Origin: Patescibacteria group bacterium
GTDB taxonomy: Bacteria; Patescibacteriota; Microgenomatia; UBA1400; UBA1449
Direction: 5' to 3'
NCBI GenBank assembly: GCA_050942955.1
Contig: JBMNOG010000005.1
Span: 307 to 64,306, forward strand
Length of the DNA stretch: 64,000 nt
Part shown: positions 4,381 to 56,871 of the stretch, in pieces
How the letters are laid out: every line of letters begins with the position of its first letter
Position numbering within the stretch: position 1 is the first letter of the stretch
Notes under the pieces: model-generated
Database searches by the model: none
Told to the model about the DNA's origin: nothing
Seen by the model: the letters and a program-made list of their open reading frames with translations, nothing else
Translations under genes and position numbers: made by a program

Positions 4381-4398
4381 GCCGTTCCTAATTTTTAG

Positions 4399-5697: not shown

Positions 5698-5748
5698 AGG
5701 AAAATTATATAAAATCTTCAGGCAGATGTTAACCTGAAAACTTTTGTG

Positions 5749-6900: not shown

Positions 6901-6903
6901 ATG

Positions 6904-27218: not shown

Positions 27219-27656
27219 ATGAATAAAGACCTAAAAGTTAAGGCTGTATATCCGTACGAAAGGAAAGAGGATTATAAGTTACCTCTTTACACCACCAAGG
27301 TTCCTGCCGGGTTTCCTTCTCCGGCTGATGACTATATCGAAAGTAAATTGGACCTAAACAAATTTCTGGTAAAACATCCTAGCGCTACGTTTTTTGTGAG
27401 AGTTGAAGGGGAGTCCATGAAGGACGCCGGTATTTACCCCAACGATATTCTGATTGTGGATAGAGCCGTAGAGCCTAAAGCCAACCACGTGGTTATTGCT
27501 GCTGTTAATGGAGAGCTGACAGTGAAAAGGATTTATGTTTCCCGAAAGAAGTTGTTCCTTATCCCCCAAAATCCCCAGTACAAACCTATGGAAATAACAA
27601 AGGATATGGATTTTGAGATTTGGGGGGTTGTTACTCACGTTCTTCACAAAGTCTAA
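27219..27656 (+). CDS. umuD: UmuD-like S24 peptidase (translesion polymerase accessory subunit)
   Basis: VPAGFPSPADDY...VRVEGESMKDAGIYPNDILIVDR...VIAAVNGELTVKRIY carries the Ser/Lys dyad context of UmuD/LexA C-terminal domains. Confidence 0.75.
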   Translation: MNKDLKVKAVYPYERKEDYKLPLYTTKVPAGFPSPADDYIESKLDLNKFLVKHPSATFFVRVEGESMKDAGIYPNDILIVDRAVEPKANHVVIAAVNGELTVKRIYVSRKKLFLIPQNPQYKPMEITKDMDFEIWGVVTHVLHKV

Positions 27657-27682
27657 ATTTTTCTTGGGTATAGTGGGAGGTA

Positions 27683-28585
27683 ATGAAGATAGGTTATGCC
27701 TCAACAAATACTTCTCTTCCCTGTAAAAGTACAAAAACCTTTCGGTTCAGCTCGTTTTCGGAAGCCCGTTTTCGTGAGACTGTTGTCAATAACCTAGACT
27801 GTTTAAAGCAAATCTTAAACTTCAATCTCCAGCACAATATCTTATTTTTCCGTATTACTTCTGACCTTATTCCTTTTGCTTCTCATCCTATAAACAGAAT
27901 TCCCTGGCAGGAGATGTATGCAGACAAACTAGCATCTTTGGGAAAATTTGTTTGGGAAAAGGGTATGAGAGTTGGGATGCATCCGGATCAGTTTGTGGTT
28001 ATTAACTCTTCCTCTTCGGAAGTGGTTAAAAACAGCGTAGCGGAACTTGTTTACCATGTAGAAGTTTTGAATCTGATGAACCTGGACTACTCTCACAAAA
28101 TCCAGATTCACATTGGGGGAGCATACGGGGATAAGCTTTCAGCCACTGCACGTTTTATAAACCGCTATAAAAGCTTACCGGAAACAGTTAAGCGTCGGTT
28201 GGTAATTGAAAATGATGAAACGCTTTACGGAGTCAAGGATTGTCTTTGGGTTTCTGAGCAAACAGGCATTCCGATTGTTTTTGACATTTTCCATTACCGG
28301 ATTAAAGAGTATAAAGATACTGTAAAAGAAGTGATGCAAAAAGTGGCCTTGACTTGGAAACAGGTTGATGGGCTGCCTATTGTTGACTACAGCAACCAAG
28401 CTCCTAATAAGCGTTTTGGGTCACACAGTCAAACTATTGATACTGCCGATTTTATGCGCACAGTACAAGAACTAAAAGGTTTTGACTTTGACATTATGCT
28501 TGAAGTAAAAGATAAAGAAATAAGTGCAATTAAAGCTTTAGAAGCTATAAAACAAAGGTATGCAAAAGAAAGTAGCTCTCATTGA
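27683..28585 (+). CDS. uvdE: UV-damage endonuclease UvdE
   Basis: MKIGYASTNTSLP...ITSDLIPFASHP matches the UvdE TIM-barrel family N-terminus. 300 aa. Confidence 0.7.
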   Translation: MKIGYASTNTSLPCKSTKTFRFSSFSEARFRETVVNNLDCLKQILNFNLQHNILFFRITSDLIPFASHPINRIPWQEMYADKLASLGKFVWEKGMRVGMHPDQFVVINSSSSEVVKNSVAELVYHVEVLNLMNLDYSHKIQIHIGGAYGDKLSATARFINRYKSLPETVKRRLVIENDETLYGVKDCLWVSEQTGIPIVFDIFHYRIKEYKDTVKEVMQKVALTWKQVDGLPIVDYSNQAPNKRFGSHSQTIDTADFMRTVQELKGFDFDIMLEVKDKEISAIKALEAIKQRYAKESSSH

Positions 28586-29834
28586 CTGCAATAACTTCTT
28601 TGTTTCCTGCGAAAGACTTTTTAATCCTCAACTTAAAGACAAACCAATAGTAGTCTTGTCCAACAACGACGGCTGTATTGTTTCTCGTTCTAATGAGGCT
28701 AAGGCTCTAGGGATTGCCATGGGGATGCCTTTATTTAAATGTCTAGATGTGGTCAAAAAATATGACGTCCAAGTTTTTTCTTCTAACTTTATTTTGTATG
28801 GAGATATTTCACACCGGGTTATGGATACATTAAGACAATTTTCACCTGAGGTTGAAATATACTCAATTGATGAAGCTTTTATAGCTTTAAATCTAAATAC
28901 CAATCAAGAAACTGTTGAGTACGGAAAAAAGATCCGTGAAACGATACTAAAATGGGTGGGAGTTCCGGTCTCAGTTGGCATTAGTTCCACTAAAACTCTA
29001 GCTAAAGCTGCCAGCGAGATTGCCAAGAAAAACCTTGATTTTGAAGGAGTATTAGAAATAGACAAAGAAAACGTTGATATTATGCTATCTGTTTTGCCTG
29101 TTGGAGATGTGTGGGGAATAGGCAGGCAGTACGCTAGGTTCTTAAAAAAACATGCAGTTGAAACTGCTCTTGATCTTCGTGAACTATCTGACGAATGGGT
29201 TAGGAAAAATCTTACTGTCTCAGGACTGAAAACTGTTTGGGAACTGAGAGGTAAAGGCTGCATTGATTTTGAGCATGTGCCTCCTGCCAGAAAATCAATT
29301 ATCAGTTCACGATCGTTTGGAAAACCGGTGGCCGACTATATCAGCTTACGGGAAGCGGTTGCCAGTTACACTTCAATAGCTGCAGAGAAGTTGCGCAACC
29401 AGAAACTGGTAGCCTCTTGTGTTTTAGTTTACATAACTACCAACCGGTTTAAAGAGCAAGAAAAACAGTATTCCAATTCTTATGTTCTTAGATTACTGGA
29501 AGCTACCAATGATACATCTATCCTAGTAAAACACGCCACTGAAGCCTTGAAAAAGATTTACAAAAAGGGTTTTAAGTATAAAAAAGCTGGAGTGCTCTTG
29601 CTGGATCTGGTTTCTGAAAACAATATACAGGCAAACTTATTTACCAACCAGCGAGGAAAGATTAAAAGAAGTAAACTCCTGCATGCTTTAGATTTCATTA
29701 ACAACCGCTGGGGAGGCAACACAGTAAGTGTCGCGGCAGCCGGCATTAAAAAACCGTGGAAGGCAAACCAAGCTAGAAAAACAGGCAGACTAACTACTTC
29801 TTGGGACGAGCTTCCGAAAGTTAAAACTAGATAG
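28560..29834 (+). CDS. umuC: Y-family translesion DNA polymerase UmuC
   Basis: VALIDCNNFFVSCERLFNPQLKDKPIVVLSNNDGCIVSRS is the canonical UmuC/DinB N-terminus. It overlaps the uvdE 3' end by 26 nt. Confidence 0.85.
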   Translation: MQKKVALIDCNNFFVSCERLFNPQLKDKPIVVLSNNDGCIVSRSNEAKALGIAMGMPLFKCLDVVKKYDVQVFSSNFILYGDISHRVMDTLRQFSPEVEIYSIDEAFIALNLNTNQETVEYGKKIRETILKWVGVPVSVGISSTKTLAKAASEIAKKNLDFEGVLEIDKENVDIMLSVLPVGDVWGIGRQYARFLKKHAVETALDLRELSDEWVRKNLTVSGLKTVWELRGKGCIDFEHVPPARKSIISSRSFGKPVADYISLREAVASYTSIAAEKLRNQKLVASCVLVYITTNRFKEQEKQYSNSYVLRLLEATNDTSILVKHATEALKKIYKKGFKYKKAGVLLLDLVSENNIQANLFTNQRGKIKRSKLLHALDFINNRWGGNTVSVAAAGIKKPWKANQARKTGRLTTSWDELPKVKTR

Positions 29835-29893
29835 CTATGGGTTTTGGGGAATAGCTGGTATAGTATGGTAGTTCGATTTATACTACCCTGCCT

Positions 29894-31954
29894 ATGGCTA
29901 TTGATCTTAGTAAACATCTAAACCCGTCCCAGTACAAAGCAGTGGTAACGACAGATAAGCCTGTTTTAGTTATTGCCGGCGCAGGTTCAGGCAAGACTCG
30001 GGTAATTGAGTATAAAGTGATTCATTTGCTGGAGAAAAAAATTAATCCACAGTCTATTTTGCTCTTAACGTTTACACGTAAAGCTGCTTCTGAAATGCTG
30101 TCGCGAGCCGGCAGACATGATGTCCGCTGTGAGCAAATTGAAGGAGGTACGTTTCACTCTTTTGCATACAAAGTCCTCAAACGTTTTGCCCAAAAAGTTG
30201 GATTGCCTAACTCGTTTTCAATCTTGGATGATAGCGACGCTAATGAACTTATTGCTAGATGTACGGTTAAGCTCGGTCTTCTGGATGTAGAAAAGCGTTT
30301 TCCGAAAAACGAAACCCTCAAAAGCATTATTAGTAAATCCATAAACAAGCAATCTTCAATTAAGGCTGTTTTGGAACGGGAATATCCGCAGTTTGAAGAG
30401 TTCAGCCAGGAGATAACCCGGCTTAGAGAAGTTTATTTCCGTTATAAACGGGAAGTGGGATATGTGGATTATGATGATCTACTAGTTTACCTTAAGATGT
30501 TGCTTGAAGTGTCTGACTTGCGGCAGAGGATAGCTTCCCAGTTCCAGTATGTTATGGTTGATGAGTACCAGGACACGAATAAACTCCAGGGAGATATTGC
30601 CTATCTATTAGCTGAAAGCCACGGGAACATTATGGCTGTAGGTGATGATGCCCAGAGTATTTATGGCTTTAGGGGTGCAACCCACCAAAACATCATGGAG
30701 TTTCCCCTGCAATTTCCAGGGTGTGAAGTTATTAAGCTTGAGCAAAACTACCGCAGTACCCAGTCTATCCTTGATGTTTCCAATGTGGTTTTGGATAACA
30801 TGAGTAAAAAATATGAGAAACGCCTGGTTGCCTCAAAAGAGGATTTGGGGCTAAGACCCCAGTTTGTTGGTTTCAAAAATTCTTACCAGGAAGCAGAGTG
30901 GGTAGCAAAAACTATAAAAGAGCTAAGAGATGATGGTATACCTCTTGGCAAACAGGCCGTGTTGTTTAGGTCTGCGTACATTTCCATTTCTCTTCAGGCT
31001 GAACTTAACCGGTTAGGTATTCCCTTTAGAGTCTATGGTGGTTTGAAGTTTTATGAAACAGCCCACGTCAAAGACATGGTGGCTTTACTTAAAATTCTGC
31101 AAAGTCCTAGAGATGAGTTGGCGTGGAGTCGGGTACTAAGGTTTATTGAAGGCGTTGGACCCGTAACTGTAGATAAAATCACTGCTGCGTTTGCTGAAGA
31201 AACTACTTTAACAGGTGTTTTGACTATACTGGAGAAACAGTTTGGACGAGGATTTAAATTTTCAAAAGATATTGAAAAGATTGTCAAGGTCTACGAAAAC
31301 CTTATCGGTATAGATTCAGTTGAAATTCAATTTATTAAACTAATCGAGTACTATGACTCGATTTTGCGTAAAAAGTATGACGAATGGCATCTTAGACGCA
31401 ATGATTTAGATGTGTTAGCTGAAATCGCTTCCGGTTATAAATCCCTTGAGCAGTTTCTGGTTGATTTAGCCTTAGAACCACCCCAGCAGGGTGTAGCTGA
31501 AGTAGGGGCGGAGTTGGACGATGAAACTCCGCTGACTCTTTCTACTATCCACTCAGCCAAGGGTCTTGAGTGGGATGTAGTATTTGTTATCGGTATGGTT
31601 GATGGAGTCTTGCCGAGCCGTTTCTCTCTTCGTTTTAAAGATCAGCTTGAAGAAGAACACCGCCTTTTTTACGTGGCAGTTACCAGAGCCAAGCAGTATC
31701 TGTATTTGACCATGCACCATGAAGGTAGTCGTTATGGGTTATCTCAATTCAACCGGGTGTCCCGATTTTTAGAAAGTAGAAATATCTTAGAAAAACTTGA
31801 TCAGCAACTTATTGAGCATAAAACGTTTCAAATAGAAAGAACGAAGCTTGCCAAAGATAAAAGAATGCGTTTAGTAAGTGATGACTTTGAGGAGATCGAC
31901 ACTACCGATAAAAAGTCTCTATTCAAAAAAATCAATGATTCGTGGAAGTGGTAG
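29894..31954 (+). CDS. UvrD/PcrA-family ATP-dependent DNA helicase
   Basis: Walker A AGAGSGKT. DEYQDTN. QNYRST. VTRAK near the C-terminus. 686 aa. Confidence 0.85.
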   Translation: MAIDLSKHLNPSQYKAVVTTDKPVLVIAGAGSGKTRVIEYKVIHLLEKKINPQSILLLTFTRKAASEMLSRAGRHDVRCEQIEGGTFHSFAYKVLKRFAQKVGLPNSFSILDDSDANELIARCTVKLGLLDVEKRFPKNETLKSIISKSINKQSSIKAVLEREYPQFEEFSQEITRLREVYFRYKREVGYVDYDDLLVYLKMLLEVSDLRQRIASQFQYVMVDEYQDTNKLQGDIAYLLAESHGNIMAVGDDAQSIYGFRGATHQNIMEFPLQFPGCEVIKLEQNYRSTQSILDVSNVVLDNMSKKYEKRLVASKEDLGLRPQFVGFKNSYQEAEWVAKTIKELRDDGIPLGKQAVLFRSAYISISLQAELNRLGIPFRVYGGLKFYETAHVKDMVALLKILQSPRDELAWSRVLRFIEGVGPVTVDKITAAFAEETTLTGVLTILEKQFGRGFKFSKDIEKIVKVYENLIGIDSVEIQFIKLIEYYDSILRKKYDEWHLRRNDLDVLAEIASGYKSLEQFLVDLALEPPQQGVAEVGAELDDETPLTLSTIHSAKGLEWDVVFVIGMVDGVLPSRFSLRFKDQLEEEHRLFYVAVTRAKQYLYLTMHHEGSRYGLSQFNRVSRFLESRNILEKLDQQLIEHKTFQIERTKLAKDKRMRLVSDDFEEIDTTDKKSLFKKINDSWKW

Positions 31955-32409: not shown

Positions 32410-35187
32410 ATGATCTTAAACTGGTTGAAATCTTTGGTTGACGAGAATAAAAAAATACTGACAAGTTATGAGACTATAGTTAGGGCAATTAACGAACTTG
32501 AGCCCGAGATGAAAAAGCTCAAAGATAAGGATTTTGCTGCCAAAACAGCAGAGTTTAAAGAAAGACTTAATACCCATGAAACTTTAGATGATGTTCTTCC
32601 GGAAGCGTATGCTCTTGTTCGTGAGGCTGCGCTTAGGGTCTTGGGGTTGCGGATGCACGATGTGCAGCTAATAGCAGCTATCGCTTTTCATAAAGGCCAA
32701 GTAGCTGAGCAAAAAACAGGAGAGGGCAAAACCCTTTCGGCTGTTCCGGCTTTATACCTAAACAGCCTGACGGGTAAAGGGGCTCATTTGGTGACTGTAA
32801 ACGATTACTTAGCTAGAATTGGCGCAGGTTGGAATGGCCCCATTTTTCAACTGCTCGATGTTTCGGTGGGGGTGATTTACTCTGGGAAAGGGGAGCAGCC
32901 TGCCAGGCTCTATGACCCTTCATTTACAGAATCAAACCAATATGATGAGCGCTTAAGTCACCTGCGACCTGTTACCCGCCAGGAAGCGTACAAAGCTGAT
33001 ATTACCTATGGTACTAACAACGAGTTTGGCTTTGATTACTTAAGAGATAATATGGTCCAGAGTCTTAGGGAAATGGTTCAGCGAGGGCATCACTTTGCCA
33101 TTGTTGATGAGGTAGACTCAATTCTTATTGATGAAGCCAGAACTCCGCTTATTATTTCAGCGCCTGATACTGAACCAACGGACAAGTATTACCAGTTTGC
33201 TCAGCTTATTGATGGGCTTTCACCTGATACTGATTACATTATCGACGAAAAAGTTAAATCAGCAAGCCTTACTGAACACGGTATTGCCAAAGTAGAGAAA
33301 AGGCTGGGAATTGATAACTTGTATGAAAAAGATTTCGAAGTTATTCACCACATTGAAAATGCCTTGAAGGCAAGGTCACTTTATCTTAAAGATAGGGATT
33401 ATGTAGTTAAGGAAGATCAAGTTATCATTGTTGACGAGTTTACTGGTAGGCTTATGTATGGTCGGCGCTGGTCAGAGGGTTTGCACCAGGCAGTTGAAGC
33501 CAAAGAAGGAGTTAAAATTCAGCAGGAATCAAAGACTTTGGCAACTATTTCTTTTCAAAACTACTTCAGAATGTACGAAAAGTTGTCTGGTATGACAGGA
33601 ACGGCTGCGACAGAAGCAGAGGAGTTTAGACGAATTTATGGTTTAGAAGTGGTAGTAGTTCCGACTCATAAACCCGTAGCCAGAATTGATAATCCTGATG
33701 TCGTCTATAAGACTCAGCGGGCTAAGTATGCTGCTATTGCCGAAGAGGTCAGAAGGCTCTATGAAAAAGGCCAGCCGGTTCTGGTCGGTACCACTTCCAT
33801 TGAAAAGAACGAAATTGTTTCAAGTCTCCTTAAACGCAAGAAAATTCCTCATAACGTCTTGAATGCTAAAAACCATGAGAGAGAAGCCGCGATTATCGCT
33901 GATGCCGGCAAGGTCAATGGGGTGACTATTGCTACCAACATTGCCGGAAGAGGAGTGGATATTGTGCTCGGTGGTGCTCCTCCTGAAAAAGAGAATTTCA
34001 AGGAAAAGAAAGCCTATGAAAAAGAACTGAAGAAGTGGCAGGAACAGCATGACAGGATTATCGAGCTAGGCGGTTTGTTTGTTCTGGGCACGGAAAGACA
34101 TGAGGCCAGGCGTATTGATAACCAGCTAAGAGGCCGTTCAGGCCGTCAGGGAGATCCAGGGGAGTCTAGATTTTACGTTGCTTTAGATGATGACATCATG
34201 AGGATATTTGGAGGTGAACAAGTAGCCAGGCTTATGGATATGTTTAAACTTCCTGAAGATATTCCTTTGGAGCACAGCATGGTTTCAAGGGCTATTGAGC
34301 AAGCTCAGGTGAAGGTGGAAGGTTTTCACTTTGATTCCAGAAAACATGTGGTTGAGTACGACGATGTCATGAATAAACAGAGGGAAATCATTTACAAGAG
34401 AAGGAAAAATGTTCTGGAAATGGCTGCGGAGTTGGAAAAAGAGCTTGATGGTGAACAGGTTGACATGGATAAAGTTAAAAAGCGGTTTGAAGATTTCGCG
34501 CTTAGAAAGACTATTATTGACAACATCGAAGAAGATATCGAGAACTTAGTCACTATCCGTATGCCGGATGGTATAGCTGATGTTGAGTACGAACAAATGG
34601 TGCGTGATTTTGCCGAGATTGTCCCCTTTGACCTTGCATCACAAAAAAGAATTCAGAAAGAGATAGAGAAAATTCATGAACCGGAGAAAATAATCCAGAA
34701 ACTGAAGGATATCTTCAGTAAGGTTTATAGCCAGAGGTTAGCTGAGCTTGGGCCGATTCTAATGGCTCAGATAGAAGTGTATGTAACTCTGCGAACTATT
34801 GATAAACTATGGATGGATCACCTGGATGCTATTGATGACCTGAGAGAAGGTATAGGTCTTAGGGGATATGGTCAAAGAGATCCGTTAGTTGAGTATAAAA
34901 ACGAAGCCTTTAATATGTTTGAGAGATTGTTGGCCAATGTAGATTATGAAATTGGAAGACAAGTGCTGCGTATTCATGTAGCTCAGCAGCCAACTATGTC
35001 AACCGAGGTAGTTACTAAACACCCTCAGGTTAGCCAGCCGAAAGCTAGTCCGATAAACCAACCTCTTCAGCAGACTTCAATGCCGCAACGGACAGTGAAA
35101 AATCGCAAAAAAATTGGCCGCAACGACCCTTGTTGGTGTGGAAGCGGTAAAAAGTGGAAAAAATGCCACTATCCGCAAACAGGCTAG
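32410..35187 (+). CDS. secA: Preprotein translocase ATPase SecA
   Basis: Full SecA motor. C-terminal zinc motif CWCGSGKKWKKCH. Ends with TAG. Confidence 0.97.
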   Translation: MILNWLKSLVDENKKILTSYETIVRAINELEPEMKKLKDKDFAAKTAEFKERLNTHETLDDVLPEAYALVREAALRVLGLRMHDVQLIAAIAFHKGQVAEQKTGEGKTLSAVPALYLNSLTGKGAHLVTVNDYLARIGAGWNGPIFQLLDVSVGVIYSGKGEQPARLYDPSFTESNQYDERLSHLRPVTRQEAYKADITYGTNNEFGFDYLRDNMVQSLREMVQRGHHFAIVDEVDSILIDEARTPLIISAPDTEPTDKYYQFAQLIDGLSPDTDYIIDEKVKSASLTEHGIAKVEKRLGIDNLYEKDFEVIHHIENALKARSLYLKDRDYVVKEDQVIIVDEFTGRLMYGRRWSEGLHQAVEAKEGVKIQQESKTLATISFQNYFRMYEKLSGMTGTAATEAEEFRRIYGLEVVVVPTHKPVARIDNPDVVYKTQRAKYAAIAEEVRRLYEKGQPVLVGTTSIEKNEIVSSLLKRKKIPHNVLNAKNHEREAAIIADAGKVNGVTIATNIAGRGVDIVLGGAPPEKENFKEKKAYEKELKKWQEQHDRIIELGGLFVLGTERHEARRIDNQLRGRSGRQGDPGESRFYVALDDDIMRIFGGEQVARLMDMFKLPEDIPLEHSMVSRAIEQAQVKVEGFHFDSRKHVVEYDDVMNKQREIIYKRRKNVLEMAAELEKELDGEQVDMDKVKKRFEDFALRKTIIDNIEEDIENLVTIRMPDGIADVEYEQMVRDFAEIVPFDLASQKRIQKEIEKIHEPEKIIQKLKDIFSKVYSQRLAELGPILMAQIEVYVTLRTIDKLWMDHLDAIDDLREGIGLRGYGQRDPLVEYKNEAFNMFERLLANVDYEIGRQVLRIHVAQQPTMSTEVVTKHPQVSQPKASPINQPLQQTSMPQRTVKNRKKIGRNDPCWCGSGKKWKKCHYPQTG

Positions 35188-35280: not shown

Positions 35281-35949
35281 TTATTCCTCTGCTTCAAGGT
35301 CTCCCATTCCGCCCATTAACTCCTCAAGTTCTTCAGCTGAAGGGATATCTGAGGGTTTCATGTCTTGAAACTGTTTCACACTCTCCATGAGCTGAGCCAT
35401 ATCCTGAAACTGAATATCAGAAGGCGGGGTAAACTCACTGTCACTAATAGTTTGAGGAGTACAATTTACTTCGTAATCATCTTCGATCTCATCTGCCCAT
35501 TTTTCCATATCTCCCCAACTTTCTGCTTGTTCATTAGTGCCTGTGTCTTCATTAGCTAGACCTTCAAGAGCGCTGATTTTATACTTTATCCCAGCTTTGG
35601 TACTCCCATCCCAAAAGTAGACCCATTCACCGTCATTAATGACCCCTCCTTCTTCAATTGCTTCAGTTTCCGGATTGTAATCAATGCCATACACTCTTGT
35701 TTTATTGCCTTTAATAGCTACTGTAATTTCTGCACCGTCTTCATTATAGGTACACTTAGCGCTTTCACCTCTTGAAAAAATACTCTTTAAGCTATTGCCA
35801 ATTGTCTGTTCAGACTGTTCCTCTTGCTGCTCTTGTTGGAGGCCATCTTCATTAGAAGTTGAAGTCTGATTATTTGAAAACAGGGTGCAACTGGTTAGAA
35901 GTAAGGAAACAATAGCAAATAGTAAAAAGTTGAGTTTTTTCATAATCAC
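35281..35949 (-). CDS. Acidic secreted lipoprotein (hypothetical)
   Basis: Lipobox-like LLLTSC after a hydrophobic leader. Highly acidic mature part. Confidence 0.5.
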   Translation of the reverse strand: MIMKKLNFLLFAIVSLLLTSCTLFSNNQTSTSNEDGLQQEQQEEQSEQTIGNSLKSIFSRGESAKCTYNEDGAEITVAIKGNKTRVYGIDYNPETEAIEEGGVINDGEWVYFWDGSTKAGIKYKISALEGLANEDTGTNEQAESWGDMEKWADEIEDDYEVNCTPQTISDSEFTPPSDIQFQDMAQLMESVKQFQDMKPSDIPSAEELEELMGGMGDLEAEE

Positions 35950-36116
35950 CTTTCTTTATTAATTTGTATGTACCTATGTATATAACATCATCATAGAACC
36001 CGAGCAAGTAGTCTTTTATAACACTCAGTTTCAGTAAGAAATATTCTTTATATAGAAAAGAAATAAAAAAATGGGACTGACAATGAGTCTTGAATTTCTA
36101 CTGGAAATAAGAGAAA

Positions 36117-37793
36117 TTGGAAAGTATGAAACTTACAACTCAGTTTCAAGATATTTCAAAGCATAGTCACCTAATAGCAGTTATTGTTCTGGCTTTTTTT
36201 CTAGGGCTAGGCAATCTCTTTTTTGACTTTCCCCTGGCATTTACTGTTGGGGATGAGTTTGAAAGTCAAAGAGTAGCTCTTGAAATACTTAATAGTTATT
36301 CTTTGCGCCAATACTCGACCTATTTTCCTTTATGGTCCTGGATACAGCTGCCGTTCATTGTAATTACCCTTTTGGTTTTAAAAGTTTTTGGCTTCTTTTC
36401 TTCATTTGAAGCTGTTAAAAATGAAGTTTTACTGTATTCACCAGGGTTGTTTATGTTTATACCAAGACTTTTATCTGCTATAGTTTCAAGCTTAGCTGTG
36501 ATCTGGTTGTATAAAATTGGAAAGACATTAAAGTCTGGGCGCCTTGGTCTAATAATGAGTATTCTTTTCTGCTTCAACTTCCTACGTGTTCAGTAGGCGC
36601 ACTTTGGAAGGGTGACTTCGCTTTATCTATTTATGAGTTTAGGAATGCTCTACTATCTGATTTCTTTTCTTAAAACTAAATCATGCCGAAACTTCTGTTT
36701 CTCTATTATTTTTCTTGTAGGAGCTATTGCAGCTTACCCAATGGGAATTACTTTTATCTCCGCGGTGGTTCTTTGCTACTACTTATCTAAGAGTAGATTT
36801 AGTGTAAAAGATATAAAAAATGTAAAGCTAGTTAGTGTGGGAGGTCTTATTTTTATAGGAATCCTCCATTATCTTACACCCGGGATAATCTCGGCTTATA
36901 CTTCCCAGGTATCAGTTTTTTCTTCTGAGGTTTCACTTATTGGAAAAATAATTTACTACGGGAAAGTGCTGTTCTTGTATGACCCACTAGTTTTAATACT
37001 TGGCGTTGTGGGTTTGGTTGGTGCAGCTCAAAAGCACAAAAAACTGCTTTCTTTAATTCTTGCTTTTGCCGGATTCTCCTTTTTACCATACTTGTTTAAA
37101 AGTACGGCTGAACCTCGGTATGCGGTTTCTTTGTTCATTATGTTGACTATAGGAACTGCTTTTATTGTGGATAAGATTTTACAAAAGGTGGGTAAGAAAA
37201 AGTATGCATGGGTAGTAGTATTCTTAATTGTAATGTATCCAGCTATCTTAAATTTTCGAATGGTTCAGCTTATGTACTAAAAAAGCACTTATTTACTAGC
37301 GAAACATTGGATAGAGAAAAATATTCCCACAAATCATCCGCTTCTGGTAGATCGGAATAACTTCTATCTTTTGCCAACCAAAAAAGCCCAGTTTCCCAAT
37401 CATCTTTACAATACTTCTTATTATGTCCGGCTTAGACAAGCACTATCAACTCTTAGTGAAGAAGAAAAAGGTAATCTACCAAACCTAAAGCTTGTTAGGT
37501 CTATAAGCAACATGAAAATGCTTTCTGGAGAGGTTGACTGGAAGTATTTAAAAGCTAAAGATTACGACTATGTGGTTATTGAGTATTTTACCGACACCGA
37601 AAAGCAGTCTTTTATGAAAAAAATCGATTTTTCCCCAAGCCAGTTTATGTTAGTTAAAACAATAGCTCCCAGTAAAAAGATCACTAACATCTCAACTGTC
37701 CTTAATATTGAAAATCCGGTAGTTGATTTGTTTTCAATTGACCGCTTTGGACCGTATTTCGAAATCTATGAGAAACGTTGGAAACTGCAGTAG
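36117..37793 (+). pseudogene. ArnT/PMT_2-like GT-C glycosyltransferase interrupted by two in-frame stops (TAG at 36594-36596, TAA at 37278-37280)
   Basis: Three ORFs (36117-36596, 36612-37280, 37371-37793) share one reading frame. Their 15-nt and 90-nt linkers contain no other stops. The combined ~559-aa product is multi-TM with a DE motif (VGDEFESQRVALEIL) and a soluble C-terminal domain. Confidence 0.5.
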
Positions 37794-37794
37794 C

Positions 37795-38952
37795 TTAGGA
37801 GAGTTTCAGAGTCTGATATATTTTCTTCAGGTTGCTCACTTGTATCTTGAAAGAATAGAAAGTCTCTGAATGTTTTTTAGCTGCTCTGCCCAGTTTCTGG
37901 ACAAATGTATTGTCATCAACTAAGGCAATGATGGCTTTTGCAAGAGCCGGGACATCTTTGTTCTTCACTACTATTCCAGTTTTATTATGAACAACTGTTT
38001 CAGGATACTGTTTATCTCCAAAGCAAACTGTAGGGATGCTAAAGCTACCTGCTTCTATATTAACCATTTCTAAGGCACTGAAGATAATGTTGGGATTAAC
38101 TAAGATGTCAATTTGAGAGAGAAAGTCCCAGCGCTGCATTGTTCCCGGGAATTTTACTAAACCTTTTAGGTTATGAGTTTTTACAAATTCTTCCAGTAAA
38201 CTTCTTTCAGGTCCATCTCCGGCGATCAAAACTCTTGCTTTTGCCTGTCTTAGTTCTTTTTGTACTAGGTCTACTGCCCTTAGCAAGTATATGGGCCCCT
38301 TATCGGGGTAGAGGCGGCCAAGAAATCCAATGGTTATGTTCTTTCTTATAGTCTTAACTAGTTTTGAAGGTTTAACTCCAGGATTGTAGAAAGCCACTAA
38401 TTTGCCAGGAAATTTCTTTGATAAAACTAAAGCATAAGTTTTGGAGTTAGCTGCAACGAGATCGGCATTATTAAAGGAGAAACTGGAGATAGTATTGAAA
38501 ACAAATTTTTTGAGAAAAACAGGAATGAATTTAAAACGATTCTTCAAAATTTCATCATACGTGGTTCTAAACTCCACAATAACAGGGATGGAAAACAACT
38601 TACCTAGAGCTGCTGCTACTGGACCACTAATATGGGGAGACTCGGCGTGAATAATGCTGACTTTGTGTGTTCTCAAAAAAAAGTAGCCTTTTACAAAAAG
38701 TAAAATACCGGCAAAGTAGTACCACAAAGAATGGTCAAAGCCGTTGATATGCACAAGATGGACTTTGTTTTCAAGTTTAGTTTTAGTAGGATTTTTTGTG
38801 GAAGTATTGTAAAAGCTCTTGCCTGATCGTCCTAAAGCATATACGCATTTAACTGCCTTTTGGGCTGCAATAACTCTAAGCTCTCCCGGAGATAGGGTTT
38901 TGCTATGGTAAGAAGGTGGGAGGATAGATTCAAAAAGAAAAAGAACGTTCAT
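37795..38952 (-). CDS. GT4-family (GT-B) glycosyltransferase
   Basis: C-terminal half ARVLIAGDGPERSLLEEF...NIEAGSFSIPTVCFGD fits the GT4 nucleotide-sugar-binding domain. Confidence 0.7.
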   Translation of the reverse strand: MNVLFLFESILPPSYHSKTLSPGELRVIAAQKAVKCVYALGRSGKSFYNTSTKNPTKTKLENKVHLVHINGFDHSLWYYFAGILLFVKGYFFLRTHKVSIIHAESPHISGPVAAALGKLFSIPVIVEFRTTYDEILKNRFKFIPVFLKKFVFNTISSFSFNNADLVAANSKTYALVLSKKFPGKLVAFYNPGVKPSKLVKTIRKNITIGFLGRLYPDKGPIYLLRAVDLVQKELRQAKARVLIAGDGPERSLLEEFVKTHNLKGLVKFPGTMQRWDFLSQIDILVNPNIIFSALEMVNIEAGSFSIPTVCFGDKQYPETVVHNKTGIVVKNKDVPALAKAIIALVDDNTFVQKLGRAAKKHSETFYSFKIQVSNLKKIYQTLKLS

Positions 38953-39022
38953 ATACTACTTTATGGCCTTGTTGACCAGTTTCTTTTGCAAGAAATAGTT
39001 ATCTGAGTTTAGTCCGGGATTT

Positions 39023-39808
39023 TTAATGCATACCATAAAAAAAAAGTTCACCTAAGCATGAGGGAAGAGGAAAACCTAAGAGTGAAAGAATTTGCGAAGG
39101 GTATTTTATAAGTATGTTTTGAACTGAATTTGGGATATGGGGAAAATACGGAGGATCCATAAGGCCATTGTAAAATGTCTTCATAGGAATAAAGCCTGCC
39201 TTTTTGACCATCAATCCCCACTCAAGTGGACTGTAGAAAGAAATGTGAGTAGGATCAGAAAAGCCAAACCATTTATCCCATTTCAATTGCAGGCCAAAAC
39301 TAGAGGGATTAGGAGCAGAGAAGACAAATATACCATCTGGTTTAAGGATTCTATAAATAGAATCTAATGTAGTGGGTTTAACTAGAACATGCTCCAGAAC
39401 ATCGAAACAAGTGATTACATCATATTTTTTAGCGGGGAGACTATCTAGATCGTATATCGATTTTATCTGAAAGTGTGCTTTTGGAGCTCTTCTTTTTGCC
39501 TCATTTAATCCGTTTTGTGATATATCAATTCCTGTACAATTAAAGTAATGTTGGGCGTGCTGCAAAAACAGACCATTGCCACAACCTATGTCGAGCAAAG
39601 AAGATTTTGACCGCTTCTGCTTCTTCAGGAAAGAAAATACTGGCTCTTTTCTGTCAATGTACTTAATAAATAGTTGTTGAAGGAAAGGTCTTTTACGATA
39701 CCTATTAAAGTAGTTTTTGTCGTATACTTCCTTTAGAAAGTTACTACTATTTTTCATAGAATTGTGATCAAACCTAGCGTTGCAGTTTTGATTCTTAATT
39801 ATAAACAA
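39023..39808 (-). CDS. Class I SAM-dependent methyltransferase (likely true start at the internal Met, ~39757)
   Basis: SAM motif I LLDIGCGNGLF. The acidic motif II CFDVLEHV. The annotated 5' end overlaps the divergent GT2 gene by 45 nt. Confidence 0.7.
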   Translation of the reverse strand: MFIIKNQNCNARFDHNSMKNSSNFLKEVYDKNYFNRYRKRPFLQQLFIKYIDRKEPVFSFLKKQKRSKSSLLDIGCGNGLFLQHAQHYFNCTGIDISQNGLNEAKRRAPKAHFQIKSIYDLDSLPAKKYDVITCFDVLEHVLVKPTTLDSIYRILKPDGIFVFSAPNPSSFGLQLKWDKWFGFSDPTHISFYSPLEWGLMVKKAGFIPMKTFYNGLMDPPYFPHIPNSVQNILIKYPSQILSLLGFPLPSCLGELFFYGMH

Positions 39809-40681
39809 CCTAACCTAACTTTACAGTGTCTTAAGAGTCTTTCCAAGCTTTCTTACTCTAATTACCATATTTATCTTTTGGACAATGAAAGTGATGGAAA
39901 CCTTGAAAAACGGCTTTCTCAAAACTGTAAACTCAAGTATTTTAAACGAAAAGATAATCTTGGGTTTACTAAAGGAAATAATTTTCTTATTAAGAAAGCC
40001 TTGAAAGATAAAGCTGAATATCTATTACTTTTAAATAATGACACAGAAATTAAACCTGGCCTTATTGAGGCGATGCTTGGTGAATATAAAGATGAAACAG
40101 CAGGTTTGGTAGGTTCGGTAATAACTTACTTTAATAAGTCAAATATAGTCTGGTTTGCAGGGGGGAGTTTGCATCCTCTTTTTTTCTATACCCGCCACCC
40201 AGGGATGAATAAAGTTTTTTCGAGTACGAGAAAACTTGGAAAGATAGACTGGATAACAGGCTGCTGTTTGATGATTAAAAGGAGTGTGATTGAGAAAATA
40301 GGACTGCTTGATGATGATTACGGTTCATATTGGGAGGATGTCGACTGGTGCTACAGAGTAAAACAGGCAGGCTATGGACTGAGAGTTGTTAATAAACCCT
40401 TAGTGCTTCATAAAGTCTCCTCAAGTTTTGGGAAACAAGGTACAAACACGCTAACTTCTCAAAGAGCTTATTTTTACGGCTGCAACCCAATGCTCTTTAT
40501 CCGAAAACATGTCAAAGGGTGGCGAAAGTATGTTGGGGTTTTAGGTCAGTTACTTTTGCAGTTGCCGTACTATATGTTTGTCATGGCCTTATCACGCCAA
40601 TTTTCTGCCATTATAGAATACCTGAGAGGAATAGTTGACGGTTTAGTAAAGGGAATTTCAAATCATAATAACAACTTCTAG
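39764..40681 (+). CDS. GT2-family glycosyltransferase
   Basis: VAVLILNYKQPNLTLQCLKSL...YLLDNESDG is the GT2 (GT-A) N-terminal fold with a DxD-like motif. Confidence 0.75.
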   Translation: MIKPSVAVLILNYKQPNLTLQCLKSLSKLSYSNYHIYLLDNESDGNLEKRLSQNCKLKYFKRKDNLGFTKGNNFLIKKALKDKAEYLLLLNNDTEIKPGLIEAMLGEYKDETAGLVGSVITYFNKSNIVWFAGGSLHPLFFYTRHPGMNKVFSSTRKLGKIDWITGCCLMIKRSVIEKIGLLDDDYGSYWEDVDWCYRVKQAGYGLRVVNKPLVLHKVSSSFGKQGTNTLTSQRAYFYGCNPMLFIRKHVKGWRKYVGVLGQLLLQLPYYMFVMALSRQFSAIIEYLRGIVDGLVKGISNHNNNF

Positions 40682-40696: not shown

Positions 40697-41572
40697 CTAC
40701 CTGTTTACCATTTTCCACACATAAGGGTTTCTTCCGAAAATATGAAAATCAATCCAGCCTAACATCCTGCCGTAGCCTTCAAGAGCTAAAAGTTTAAGCA
40801 GAGGAAGAAGGTCAGTCGGGTGATTTAGAAGATACTCCAGTATTGCTTTCAAACTGTTTTCAACCCCCATAGTAGATACCCTATAGTTATACTTAGCACT
40901 AATCCACTGATGTCCGGCATAAACTCTCCTGCGTTGTGTTAGGAATTCTTCAGTAGAAAGTGGAGCTTTATTGTAAACAATGGCTCTGGGAGCATAAACG
41001 ACCTTATACCCTACAAGCTTGAGAAGAACTTCCAAAGTGGCTTCATCAACCGCCGATTGTTCAGGAATGGAGTGAATAACGTTTCGGAAAGCGACCATCT
41101 CTCCGCACTTGGGATGTTTAAGTGAGACGTAATGATGCAACTCCCAGAGAAGTTTTACTTCTTTTCCAATACTGCTAAGATGAGAGTTTGAAGGAATAGG
41201 ATGGGCTCCAACCATACCAACGTCTTCGTGAAGGAAAGGAAGAGTGATTTCTTCTACTGCATCACTTCGAAGTCTCAAATCAGCACTGACTGCCAGTAGG
41301 ACTGAAGAAGAAGCCTTACGGACAAAAAGGTTTATGGCGGCAGATTTTCCCTCTCTTCTAAGTTGGTCCAAAAGCTTAACCCGGCTATCTTTCTTGGCTA
41401 GCTTTCTGGCAATAGTATTTGTATGGTCATTACTACCTGAAGAAATTATGAGAATCTCTTTGATTCGGGCGATCTCTAGGTTTTGTTTAAAGATAGAATT
41501 AACTGTTTTTTCAAGATTTTTTTCCTCGTTGTATGCAAAGATACCAATACTGACATTAATTTTTTTTGCCAT
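40697..41572 (-). CDS. GT2-family glycosyltransferase (start taken at Met-29 of the listed ORF, MAKKINVSIGIFAYNEE)
   Basis: VSIGIFAYNEEKNLEKTVNSIFKQ is a GT2 signature. The listed ORF's first 28 aa would overlap the upstream gene. Confidence 0.65.
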   Translation of the reverse strand: MAKKINVSIGIFAYNEEKNLEKTVNSIFKQNLEIARIKEILIISSGSNDHTNTIARKLAKKDSRVKLLDQLRREGKSAAINLFVRKASSSVLLAVSADLRLRSDAVEEITLPFLHEDVGMVGAHPIPSNSHLSSIGKEVKLLWELHHYVSLKHPKCGEMVAFRNVIHSIPEQSAVDEATLEVLLKLVGYKVVYAPRAIVYNKAPLSTEEFLTQRRRVYAGHQWISAKYNYRVSTMGVENSLKAILEYLLNHPTDLLPLLKLLALEGYGRMLGWIDFHIFGRNPYVWKMVNR

Positions 41573-43082
41573 ATGGATCGGAGTTCTGGGGATTAACATT
41601 AGCAGAGGCTGTGGTTTCAACTTTATACAGTTCCAGCCATTTTCCATTACTTTCAAACCGGTTTAACGGTTGTACTTGAAAGTAGTCAAGCAACTGCCGG
41701 CAATATCTTTGCCCGGGTGAGTATGGGTGTAGGTAGAGAATTTGTGTTTGCGAAGGGTGGTACTCAAAGTTTCTGCAGTAGTCAAAGTTGAAAACTTTCT
41801 GAGTGTAGCCTTGGTAAGGCTGGGTTAGTTGGTAGACTTCAGGAAAGTCTCCATATACTTCTGCGTTCTCAAAGTTTACCTGTAAGTAATGAGCTGCTTG
41901 AAGACCAATCGTAATGATATCCTGGTACGCTAGGTTTTCAGGGGGTCTAAAGTCATAAATGGCGGTTGGTTCGACCTTAGGGTGCCACAAGGAGAGAAAG
42001 ATAATGCAAGGAATAATTATTATCACCCAGAACACTTTTTGTGAAACAATTTTATAGACCAAATATACTGTTGTTATTGCAATAGGGGGTAGAAGAAAAA
42101 TACCATATCTTAGTCCGAATTCTCCCATGAGAGCATAAAAACTGATACCTGCTAATAAAGAGACGAGTAAGGCAGTAACTTTTGGGGTAATAGTCTCCTT
42201 AAGCATTTTACGTGATAAGAGAATAGCTAAGCTCAGTGCAGCGATTACTGTTAAAGACCAGCGGCCCTGGTCCCACAGCAAAGTTTTTACAACAAACGCA
42301 AATGATTGAGTTACTTGGGAAAAAGTGTGAGGCATGTAGTTTAGTCTGCCAGGCCTACTAAGATACCATCCGGTTTGCTGATAATGATAGAAAAGCCAGG
42401 AGAGTAAAGTTATAAGCGGTAATAGTAGAGGCAGGAAACTACTTCTTTGGATATTCTTTCTCTTAAAAAGGTAAACTGTAAACGCCAGGAGGAGAGTTAT
42501 AGCTGGCAGTTTTACCAAAACTGCTAATGAAAGCATGAGACTGGCTACTAAAATATTCTCGGAAAATAGCAATGCTATAGATGCTGTTGTTAACGCTGCC
42601 ATAGGCAGGTCAATATAAACAACCCCATACTCTGCAACTACGATGGGGGCTAGACCTACTAAAAAAGCACTTACAGCTCCGATAGTCAGGTTTAAGATTT
42701 TTTTACCAATAAAGTAAGTGCTTATCATTAAAAGAGGTAAGAAGGGAAACATTAGCAAATGAGAATTAAGGATTGTGTTCCCCAAAATTTTCCAGGTAAA
42801 ACCTAGTAGTATCATGAAAAGGGGTGGATGGGCAAAATCAGACCCAGTAGGAATGAGGGGGGAGAAGTTCGAATCTACAAGGTTTCTGGTAGTATTAATG
42901 ATAAAACCGGCACTATCCCAATGGTAGGGTAGATTTTTTGTGGTCCACCAAATTACAAAACTGTACAGGATTATCAGGCTTATGATAAGCACATCTACAT
43001 ACTTAATCTTCAAAAAGGTGGATTCAGTTTGAGGTTGAAGTTTGTTTAAAGATTTCTTGCGTTTCTTCTTTCCCATGCCCAT
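41556..43082 (-). CDS. PMT-like GT-C membrane glycosyltransferase (uncharacterised)
   Basis: 508 aa, multi-TM. The loop motif WDSAGFI...SDFAHPPLFMILLG echoes the D/E...HPPL motif of PMT-type enzymes. Confidence 0.45.
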   Translation of the reverse strand: MGMGKKKRKKSLNKLQPQTESTFLKIKYVDVLIISLIILYSFVIWWTTKNLPYHWDSAGFIINTTRNLVDSNFSPLIPTGSDFAHPPLFMILLGFTWKILGNTILNSHLLMFPFLPLLMISTYFIGKKILNLTIGAVSAFLVGLAPIVVAEYGVVYIDLPMAALTTASIALLFSENILVASLMLSLAVLVKLPAITLLLAFTVYLFKRKNIQRSSFLPLLLPLITLLSWLFYHYQQTGWYLSRPGRLNYMPHTFSQVTQSFAFVVKTLLWDQGRWSLTVIAALSLAILLSRKMLKETITPKVTALLVSLLAGISFYALMGEFGLRYGIFLLPPIAITTVYLVYKIVSQKVFWVIIIIPCIIFLSLWHPKVEPTAIYDFRPPENLAYQDIITIGLQAAHYLQVNFENAEVYGDFPEVYQLTQPYQGYTQKVFNFDYCRNFEYHPSQTQILYLHPYSPGQRYCRQLLDYFQVQPLNRFESNGKWLELYKVETTASANVNPQNSDPYGKKN

Positions 43083-45260: not shown

Positions 45261-47630
45261 TTGCTTGAACGTATGAAAAAAAACACAAAACCTACTTCAA
45301 AAGTCAGAAAGTCTACTAAAACTCGCCAGTCTTCCAATAAAAACAAAGTAAAATCTGCATCAAAGTCTTTAGTAAAAGCTGTAGTTACTAAGAAAACCAC
45401 TTCTAAACCCTCACTTATTAAGAGTAGTAAAACAGAAAAGCTGTTAAATTGTTACATTCCAAAAGTAGCTTGGTACGGTGCTTTAGTCTTAGGATTTGTT
45501 TTTTTTCTACTTTATCTTTTTACAGCTCCTAAAACAAACGTTGCTTACACTGATTCTGATCTCTTCCTAACAGTTGCCTATAAACTAGGACTTGCAGAAC
45601 CACCGGGTGTACCTTTATATATGGTGCTGCTTCATTTTTTTCTTAATCTCCCCATCCCGGGATCAATCGCTTTCAGGGGTCATTTTCTAAGCACCCTTCT
45701 GCATACAGGCTCTTTAGTTATTGTGTTTGTATCAGTATGGAGGTTAATTCAGTTTCTTCAAAACAACAACAATGCAAAACTAATAATAGTTTCAAAGCAA
45801 GTTGATAGGTGGTTAGTTAGTGGTATAGCTACAGCTTCCCTAGGATCTTCATACCTGTTTTGGCAGTACGGAATTGTAGCTGAAAAATATGCCTTTATTG
45901 ATCTTTTAGTTGCTGCTGTGATTGGTATTGGAGTTTATGTGGCTACTACTGCTAAATCAAAAACAAATCTTTCTTACTGGTATGCCCTTGCCGGTTTAAT
46001 TGGGATCTTAGTTATTCATCATCCAATCTCTTTTGTTTTACTGCCTTTTGTCGCAATTTTAGTTTGGTTGAAAAAAGATATCTTTTCGAGAAAACAATAT
46101 ATGGGAATGGTGTTATCACTGTTAGTTTCTATAAGTATTAGCATAGGTGTTTTACTTGGATTAAATGCCTTAGAAAGAGAAATTAACTGGAACTTTAAGC
46201 CAACTGTTAAAGAAACAATAGACTATGTGTTTACCCAGGGTTTTAGTCGTAGTATTGCTGAAAACTTTGAAGAATACTCAGCCTTTGCTCAGATTAGCAG
46301 TGGCTCAGTTTTTAAGTCCTTAATGCAGTTTGGTAAAGTGTTTGTACAGCACTTTGGTTTGGGATCAGTCGCGCTTTTAGTGGTAGGAATTGCCTTTTTA
46401 TACTCCTCTTCAAAAAAAATGAGTTTAGTAATTCTAAGCGGCTGGACAACCGTAGGGCTGTTACTACCAGTGTTTCTGAAATGGCCAGAGAGCATGAGTT
46501 TTCAGGCTTTACGGGTACGTGACTACCTTATGGGGTACATGTTTACTCCTTTACTTGTAGGTTTGGGGGGTTGGATGGTGCTGGCGCGGTTTAATAAAGC
46601 TCTTAAAATACTTTTGCAAAACAACCGTGTTTCAACAGGGGTTACTCTTGTTGTTCCTGCGCTCATTTTAATCGTATCTATTGTAAATACTTTTAAACAC
46701 GTAAATTTACGTAACTTTACAGTATTTAGCCGTTTTCATGAATCGGTTCTTGAAAACCTTCCTCATGATGCGCTGATTGGATGTTTTACGGATACGACTT
46801 GCTCAGCTCTTTTGTATGAACAAGAGGTTAAAGGTGTAAGAAAAGATGTAATTATTGTTTCTCCTTCGCACCAGTTAATACAGAAAAAGCTTAACAGTAT
46901 TGATAACCTCAAAGGTTTTGATTACACGAATAATACCTGGTTGGTGCATGACTACTTGACTTGGAATATCGGTAAAAGGCCGGTGTATGTTATTGATCTA
47001 CCTAAAACCTATTACAACCTTCTCGGTTTAACCTACGGATTTACGTACTACATTCCAAATGGGTATGTAGGTGAATTGACTCGTGAAGTTCCAGAGGTAA
47101 CTCCATCTGTCAAGTATTCTTTTTCCGAAGAGATCGAAAACATGAATGTTCCCTCAAAAGACTTAATGCGGACTTGGCTTAAAACCTCATACGCACAGCT
47201 CCATTACTTTAATGCCGTCATGTATCTAAAAATGGATTACAGGAGCTTGGCGCGGTCAGAGTTGAATACTTTTTCTAACATTCTCCATCAAGTAGAAGCT
47301 ATTTCTAATAAAGAGATAGAAGATTCTCGGAGCTATGTTGAAGGTTCTCATCCATTAGTCAATTTTTCGCCTGGATCTGAAGTACAGCCTCTTAGCGAGA
47401 TTATGAACGGAGTTAACGCGTATTTAAATGATGGGAAACTACAGAGAGCATATACAGGTGCACTGGGGATTATTACAATTGATCCGCTCAATGAAGAAGG
47501 TCGGCTGAAACTGGCTGAGATTTATGAAAAAATGGGTAATACCCAAATGGCAAAAGTGGAGTATCAGCACGTGCTCAAGTATTACCCAAGTAACACTCAA
47601 GCTCAAACTAAACTTGCAGAGCTTAAATAG
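45261..47630 (+). CDS. DUF2723/TMEM260-like GT-C glycosyltransferase with C-terminal TPR repeats (paralog 1)
   Basis: Basic Ser/Lys-rich N-terminus. Multi-TM domain with YTDSDLFLTVAYKLGLAEPPGVPLYMVL. TPR repeats at the C-terminus. Confidence 0.55.
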   Translation: MLERMKKNTKPTSKVRKSTKTRQSSNKNKVKSASKSLVKAVVTKKTTSKPSLIKSSKTEKLLNCYIPKVAWYGALVLGFVFFLLYLFTAPKTNVAYTDSDLFLTVAYKLGLAEPPGVPLYMVLLHFFLNLPIPGSIAFRGHFLSTLLHTGSLVIVFVSVWRLIQFLQNNNNAKLIIVSKQVDRWLVSGIATASLGSSYLFWQYGIVAEKYAFIDLLVAAVIGIGVYVATTAKSKTNLSYWYALAGLIGILVIHHPISFVLLPFVAILVWLKKDIFSRKQYMGMVLSLLVSISISIGVLLGLNALEREINWNFKPTVKETIDYVFTQGFSRSIAENFEEYSAFAQISSGSVFKSLMQFGKVFVQHFGLGSVALLVVGIAFLYSSSKKMSLVILSGWTTVGLLLPVFLKWPESMSFQALRVRDYLMGYMFTPLLVGLGGWMVLARFNKALKILLQNNRVSTGVTLVVPALILIVSIVNTFKHVNLRNFTVFSRFHESVLENLPHDALIGCFTDTTCSALLYEQEVKGVRKDVIIVSPSHQLIQKKLNSIDNLKGFDYTNNTWLVHDYLTWNIGKRPVYVIDLPKTYYNLLGLTYGFTYYIPNGYVGELTREVPEVTPSVKYSFSEEIENMNVPSKDLMRTWLKTSYAQLHYFNAVMYLKMDYRSLARSELNTFSNILHQVEAISNKEIEDSRSYVEGSHPLVNFSPGSEVQPLSEIMNGVNAYLNDGKLQRAYTGALGIITIDPLNEEGRLKLAEIYEKMGNTQMAKVEYQHVLKYYPSNTQAQTKLAELK

Positions 47631-56801: not shown

Positions 56802-56871
56802 TTACTAGCTACCAAAGAATAGTTAGTCCTTCCATGATTGTAGCAAGAGGGGTAGAAAGAAAAAAGATAGA

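Follow-up and report, generated by a model that had tools for sequence, protein, structure and literature searches.

A predicted GT-C glycosyltransferase gene interrupted by two in-frame stop codons in a Patescibacterium is very probably a young nonsense pseudogene

We analysed a 64-kb stretch of a Patescibacteria genome assembly (64,000 nucleotides, hereafter the window) in which a gene for a predicted GT-C membrane glycosyltransferase is interrupted by two in-frame stop codons. We conclude that the locus is very probably a genuine young pseudogene of this gene, decaying stepwise by two point mutations. Both stops are premature when compared with full-length homologues, and homology resumes downstream of each in the same frame. 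The lesions are also real, with the first stop, a TAG, found in three assemblies and the second, a TAA, found in two, while the third assembly has CAA at that position. A sequence-only reading of the same DNA had left three explanations standing side by side, namely a recent pseudogene, a sequencing error, or programmed readthrough or suppression. The first of these is the one that stood, whereas sequencing error fell to the recurrence of the TAG in three assemblies and readthrough found no support.

The ORF listing gives the locus as three plus-strand ORFs in one frame (36117-36596, 36612-37280 and 37371-37793), separated by ORF-to-ORF linkers of 15 nt (36597-36611) and 90 nt (37281-37370). 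The only in-frame stops between position 36117 and the terminal TAG at 37791-37793 are the TAG at 36594-36596 and the TAA at 37278-37280, so the earlier description of a single frame with two breaks and two short linkers is borne out by both the sequence and the ORF listing. The joined frame comprises 558 codons if read from TTG 36117 and 555 if read from ATG 36126, and the ATG is likely the true start. Fragment 1 (36126-36593, plus strand, 156 codons) encodes N-terminal transmembrane helices and an Asp43-Glu44 pair (GAT GAG, 36252-36257) that is invariant in the family. It is closed by the first premature stop, the TAG at codon 157 (36594-36596, plus strand), which is present in three of three assemblies. 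Fragment 2 (36597-37277, plus strand, 227 codons) holds the remainder of the transmembrane domain and runs to the second premature stop, the TAA at codon 385 (37278-37280, plus strand), which is polymorphic between assemblies. Fragment 3 (37281-37793, plus strand) contributes 170 codons, corresponding to the C-terminal soluble domain, plus the native TAG stop at 37791-37793. The NCBI annotation lists fragments 1, 2 and 3 as the hypothetical proteins ACOX6V_02495, ACOX6V_02500 and ACOX6V_02505, respectively. Their GenBank protein identifiers are MGI5827871.1, MGI5827872.1 and MGI5827873.1, and none is marked as a pseudogene.

Three ORFs might share a frame by chance, or they might be the remains of one gene. 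Judged by alignment, the three are one broken gene and a chance pattern is ruled out, because intact homologues (522-563 aa) can be aligned with them over the entire length, through both stops. A word-indexed protein search recovered P0001 (549 aa, 45-46% identity, 99% coverage) and P0002 (532 aa), both of which are continuous, and a cluster look-up recovered P0154 (558 aa, 46% identical). An exhaustive profile search returned 2012 cluster representatives at E<=1e-3, 35 of them at E<=1e-30; among the best 150 of the 2012, most are 500-590 aa long and match nearly the whole profile as single proteins. Continuity over both stops was seen in P0001, P0002, P0154, P0003, P0004, P0005 and P0008 (522-558 aa), as well as in two metagenome loci, L083 and L084, whose copies are 37% identical. 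By tblastn, residues 1-555 align to the window as a single segment that passes through both stops.

In an alignment of 12 family members, both stops fall at variable positions that have conserved motifs beside them (RV.[stop]AHFGR and LMY[stop]KSTY). At the site of the first stop, the two closest homologues have Gln (encoded by CAG in locus L001), and Leu, Phe, Met, Ile, Val or Ala is found elsewhere. At the site of the second, homologues have Lys, Arg, Gln, Ile, His or Ala. Each stop is one substitution away from a sense codon seen at its own site: CAG in L001 for the first, and CAA in locus L086, a second assembly of the window's own locus, for the second. The comparison with orthologues that the sequence-only reading had proposed came out as a single family spanning all three segments, with sense codons at both stop sites. 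Among species-representative genomes scanned with the GT-C alignment, no relative was found. A SecA-based scan identified the nearest genomes as members of Collierbacteria and Levyibacteriota that are 55-57% identical in SecA, and a homologue of the broken gene is absent from the corresponding loci of these genomes. We found no intact syntenic orthologue in a closely related species, the closest homologue being 46% identical.

An exact-protein look-up with the neighbouring GT4 glycosyltransferase led to two per-run assemblies of the same locus, SRR31066179 (L085) and ERR10905741 (L086). The latter was assembled from PacBio HiFi reads that belong to a time series of anaerobic digester sludge (PMC10541625). 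We compared both with the window, without gaps, over 21,158 bp, and the strains are about 99.96% identical. The SRR31066179 assembly has one difference from the window, at position 36193 inside the gene (Ala26Val), while the ERR10905741 assembly has eight, of which those inside the gene are at 36311 (Gln65His) and 37278 (T to C). All three sequences have the same TAG at 36594-36596. This stop is genuine, and assembly error is excluded for it because it also occurs in the separately deposited HiFi data set. With T at position 37278, the window and SRR31066179 read TAA, whereas ERR10905741 has C and reads CAA (Gln); the gene caller's product from the latter, P0153, is 318 aa long and runs through this site as '...QLMYQKSTY...'. 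The TAA behaves as a true strain-level SNP, and a sequencing error here is unlikely because the codon was found both in the window and in the SRR31066179 contig, which are not identical elsewhere but differ at three sites in 56 kb. These two assemblies may share a sample or stem from related ones, and we therefore do not count them as fully independent witnesses of the TAA. Exact look-ups of window fragments 1 and 2 returned no additional contigs.

We judge the inactivation to be recent, because the gene has so far suffered neither a frameshift nor a deletion and still has its conserved residues. The window protein retains all of the family's invariant residues (8 of 8) and all of the nearly invariant ones (18 of 18), and it has no indels. 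Its identity is 46% with P0154 and likewise with P0001, whereas P0154 and P0001 are 40% identical to each other, so this lineage has not diverged faster. Taken singly, none of the three fragments is less conserved than this intact pair; for instance, fragment 1 is 57% identical to P0154 and, over that segment, 48% identical to P0001, and fragment 3 is 47-52% identical to the two. About 4.9% of random single substitutions in the broken ORF would create a stop, so with two or three substitutions in the gene the chance of a second stop is about 14%, and its occurrence is unremarkable. All three SNPs inside the gene are non-synonymous or nonsense, while those outside comprise five non-synonymous and three synonymous changes. 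The density of SNPs in the gene is above expectation, with a combined p of about 0.06 that derives from only three SNPs. This pattern is consistent with, although not proof of, relaxed selection on the gene.

We suggest the following course of events. The ancestor would have been an intact gene of about 555 aa encoding a PMT_2-like membrane glycosyltransferase of the GT-C fold. In a first step, codon 157 would have become TAG by a single base change, most likely from CAG (Gln), and the resulting allele is now carried by every sampled strain of the population. Translation should stop after 156 residues, so that most of the membrane domain and the entire soluble domain would not be made; the truncated product would keep the Asp-Glu motif and, going by the model of a homologue, roughly the first four to five helices. 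Selection on the part downstream of the TAG would thereby have been lifted, and in a later step, confined to one sub-lineage, codon 385 would have changed from CAA (Gln) to TAA. The cell would be expected to lose one predicted glycan-modifying step. We infer the order of the two stops, the loss of function and the enzyme chemistry from the comparisons described here.

The locus does not differ in kind from known bacterial nonsense-mutation pseudogenes, which likewise carry stops created by single substitutions in an intact frame, gain a second lesion after the first, and have pieces that are automatically annotated as separate hypothetical proteins. What is unusual relative to typical cases is that two successive stages of decay (TAG; TAG plus TAA) are captured in near-identical digester Patescibacteria strains from different data sets. 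We found no literature joining Patescibacteria, pseudogene and glycosyltransferase. Altogether, we regard the locus as a case of ordinary early-stage gene decay that points to no new genetic code or mechanism, and the annotation should be corrected such that the three listed proteins become one pseudogene.

The sequence-only reading had assigned the gene to ArnT/PMT_2-like GT-C enzymes, and this assignment is upheld by relatives that score over the Pfam cut-off, by a fold search and by the invariant Asp-Glu pair. The joined window protein scores 20.1 bits against Pfam PMT_2 (PF13231), for which the cut-off is 26.1, with a match over residues 117-246 that spans the TAG. P0001 scores 25.8 bits, just short of the same 26.1 cut-off, while P0004, P0005, P0008, P0013, P0015 and P0019 exceed it with 36-44 bits. 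P0015 and P0030 also exceed the PMT cut-off. By gathering score, predicted membership of PMT_2 therefore holds for the family and not for the window sequence alone. We used an AlphaFold model of the intact homologue P0001, rather than of the window sequence, to examine the fold. The model is of moderate confidence (pLDDT 60, pTM 0.63); parts of the membrane domain reach 70-91, and the C-terminal domain is poorly modelled. When it was compared with the PDB using Foldseek, the top 25 matches were all GT-C proteins, among them STT3, PglB, AglB, ArnT, Pmt4, AftA and EmbC, with E values from 1.6e-5 and TM-scores up to 0.46. Through this homologue, the family would be predicted to have the GT-C fold, that is, an N-terminal helix bundle followed by a C-terminal extracytoplasmic domain.

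Asp43-Glu44, within the motif GDEFE (pair at 36252-36257), is invariant in 12 family members at 21-46% identity. The pair lies directly after the first helix, consistent with the secondary structure of the P0001 model. PMT/ArnT-type GT-C enzymes are expected to carry an Asp-Glu at this place, and a catalytic role for Asp43-Glu44 is putative. An enzyme of such a family would take a sugar from its polyprenyl-phosphate carrier and pass it to an acceptor beyond the cytoplasmic membrane. Two nearby GT2 genes (39764-40681 and 40697-41656) offer an indirect hint of a putative polyprenyl-phosphate-linked donor. The family thus resembles GT-C PMT_2/ArnT/PMT enzymes (PF13231, PF02366; ArnT 5f15, Pmt4 9i5k, PglB 3rce) in having a multi-helix membrane domain, a C-terminal soluble domain and an invariant Asp-Glu after the first helix. 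It differs from them in belonging to an uncharacterised subfamily of about 550 aa, the window copy of which falls below the PMT_2 cut-off and is broken. We count the subfamily as uncharacterised because a profile search of PDB sequences with the broken gene's family returned no match.

Several other explanations for the interrupted gene were weighed. The one that survives best, which we nonetheless consider unlikely, is an on/off heterogeneity in which a null allele dominates the consensus, an intact allele exists at lower frequency, and loss is selected, for example through phage or host interaction. Genes for surface glycosylation often come under selection for loss of function, and the TAG is common to two separately deposited data sets, both of which would suit this explanation. 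On the other hand, an intact allele did not turn up: exact-protein look-ups with flanking genes, including SecA, gave only the same two broken loci. Heterogeneity of this kind is compatible with the locus being a pseudogene, as it concerns the reason for the loss. Appreciably less probable is a variant in which the TAG allele, instead of marking neutral decay, is a selected or tolerated 'off' state of a surface-glycan enzyme in a host-attached Patescibacterium, with low-level UAG readthrough or a minority intact allele preserving the function. If this were true, the preserved frame would reflect continued weak selection and not youth alone.

A functional split gene is very improbable. According to this explanation, the pieces would be translated separately from GTG 36612 and TTG 37371, the first in-frame starts past the TAG and the TAA, respectively, and would assemble into an active enzyme, or else the 156-aa N-terminal piece would function by itself. 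Since GTG 36612 lies merely 15 nt past the TAG, coupled re-initiation is conceivable, and the ERR10905741 strain has one uninterrupted frame downstream of the TAG. However, the linker 36597-36611 encodes AHFGR and lies upstream of GTG 36612, such that a restart there would lose this segment together with the nearly invariant His159 and Phe160, a His-Phe pair kept in at least 90% of homologues. In strains with the TAA, a restart at TTG 37371 would cost a further 30 conserved codons, including those for the nearly invariant Thr388 and Ala392. A GGAAGG sequence abuts GTG 36612 without a spacer and therefore does not provide good ribosome-binding geometry. Near-full-length relatives among the matches listed are single proteins of about 500-590 aa, and the appearance of a second stop in a sub-lineage suggests that the downstream part is unconstrained. 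Judging from these features, the separate pieces would probably not be functional by restart.

Equally hard to credit is programmed or leaky readthrough, whether by a suppressor tRNA, a pyrrolysine-like system or a context-dependent mechanism, that would yield some full-length enzyme and keep the gene functional. Patescibacteria include lineages with an altered genetic code, and the present locus shares with stop-recoding systems the occurrence, in a member of this group, of in-frame TAG and TAA where relatives have Gln. The altered code of Gracilibacteria and Absconditabacteria assigns UGA to Gly, however, and not UAG or UAA. Pyrrolysine at UAG needs its own machinery and conserved UAG sites, and UAG-recoded phages are also known. 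In favour of readthrough, the frame is perfectly intact with all conserved residues retained, and both stop sites are Gln in homologues or in the sister strain. A very young pseudogene would equally show an intact frame, though, and the ordinary sense codons at both sites in homologues indicate that the stops are not conserved features. The second stop is moreover polymorphic between near-identical strains, which resembles drift rather than design.

Stop codon usage across the window also speaks against recoding. The 52 other ORFs in the window end in TAA (32), TAG (16) or TGA (4), so that TAA or TAG terminates 48 of 52. The genes ending in TAG include gltX (20688-22139) and secA (32410-35187), as had been stated from the sequence beforehand. 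Recoding systems differ from the present case in this respect, and also in that a single gene is affected here and one of its stops is a strain-level SNP. A scan of the 64 kb for long same-frame stretches split by a single stop returned only the broken GT-C gene and genuinely separate neighbours. One such set of neighbours, at 2710-8403 on the minus strand, consists of four consecutive same-frame genes (499, 383, 432 and 556 aa) with a single TAA between each. We rejected it as a second interrupted gene; the four are separate and share a frame by coincidence, because every one of them begins with a Met and a hydrophobic N-terminus of its own and they have no mutual similarity. The listed ORFs cover 91% of the window with the broken locus left out, and the gaps between ORFs that we checked are explained by an S20 gene, a tRNA and an 84-aa ORF.

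We likewise found no decoding apparatus in the window. Its sole tRNA is a normal Gln-CUG, which is all that a search of the 64 kb for the suppressor tRNA envisaged by the sequence-only reading turned up, and no PYLIS- or SECIS-like RNA was found there. A search of Rfam with positions 35800-38100 gave no match at E<=1, and thus no recoding element, and promoter and terminator scans of the locus gave background level only. The stops are neither conserved in orthologues nor part of a widespread pattern in the window. With normal TAG and TAA usage, sense codons in homologues and a polymorphic second stop, the option of programmed readthrough or suppression raised earlier is unsupported. Least probable of all, to the point of being negligible, is that the stops are artefacts of a MAG consensus and that the real genome has sense codons: low-coverage MAGs do contain substitution errors, but all three assemblies agree on the TAG, including the one derived from separately deposited PacBio HiFi data, and the TAA occurs in two assemblies that have three other mutual differences, with a clean CAA in the third, which is the pattern of a true SNP.

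The young pseudogene lies in a glycan gene cluster that contains a GT4 glycosyltransferase, a methyltransferase and the two GT2 genes (39764-40681 and 40697-41656), and this gene context fits a glycan pathway. The GT4 gene (37795-38952, minus strand; Glycos_transf_1, 4e-25) is intact and convergent with the pseudogene, with one base between their stop codons, and its product is probably the pathway partner of the broken gene. A distant relative of the latter, P0073 (923 aa), is a natural fusion of a GT4 (Glycos_transf_1) to this GT-C domain. The fusion mirrors the adjacency of the GT4 gene and the pseudogene, which suggests a joint pathway for GT4 and GT-C. GC content is 35-36% at 36001-40000, a region that includes the pseudogene, the GT4 gene and the methyltransferase gene, compared with about 40% in the rest of the window. 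The low GC may stem from the composition of membrane proteins, or the glycan cluster may have been acquired horizontally.

Besides the broken gene, the window carries no fewer than three clear GT-C genes and a further weak candidate, in agreement with the expanded repertoire that had been read from the sequence. The clear ones encode a canonical PMT/PMT_2/PMT_4TMC protein of the GT-C type (4399-5697, minus strand) and two tandem TMEM260-like proteins (45261-47630 and 47636-49885, plus strand), the C-terminal TPR-like matches of which are weak and below the cut-off. The weak candidate is a 508-aa membrane protein with a weak PMT_2 match (41556-43082, minus strand). We considered whether it might be a close paralogue able to substitute for the broken enzyme and rejected this (E = 0.32); none of the other GT-C enzymes in the window is closely paralogous to the broken gene. 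A probably surface-dependent bacterium of anaerobic digesters, with a reduced genome, would here seem to be losing one enzyme from a rich GT-C set. As listed, the ORFs at 40697-41656 and 41556-43082 (both minus strand) overlap by about 100 nt, because the longest ORF was taken; public calls start the GT2 gene later (300 aa).

Two further groups of genes in the window deserve mention. A DNA-damage gene cluster at 27219-31954 (plus strand) encodes an S24 peptidase resembling UmuD/LexA (27219-27656), the UV endonuclease UvdE (27683-28585), a UmuC-like Y-family polymerase with a DUF4113 tail (28560-29834) and a UvrD helicase (29894-31954), all on the plus strand. In this small Patescibacteria genome they form a module for error-prone repair. 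At 55557-57819 (minus strand), a type I dockerin protein (55557-56801) adjoins a protein with a WxL-interacting peptidoglycan-binding domain (56872-57819). For this group, the two surface-attachment domains make an unusual combination.
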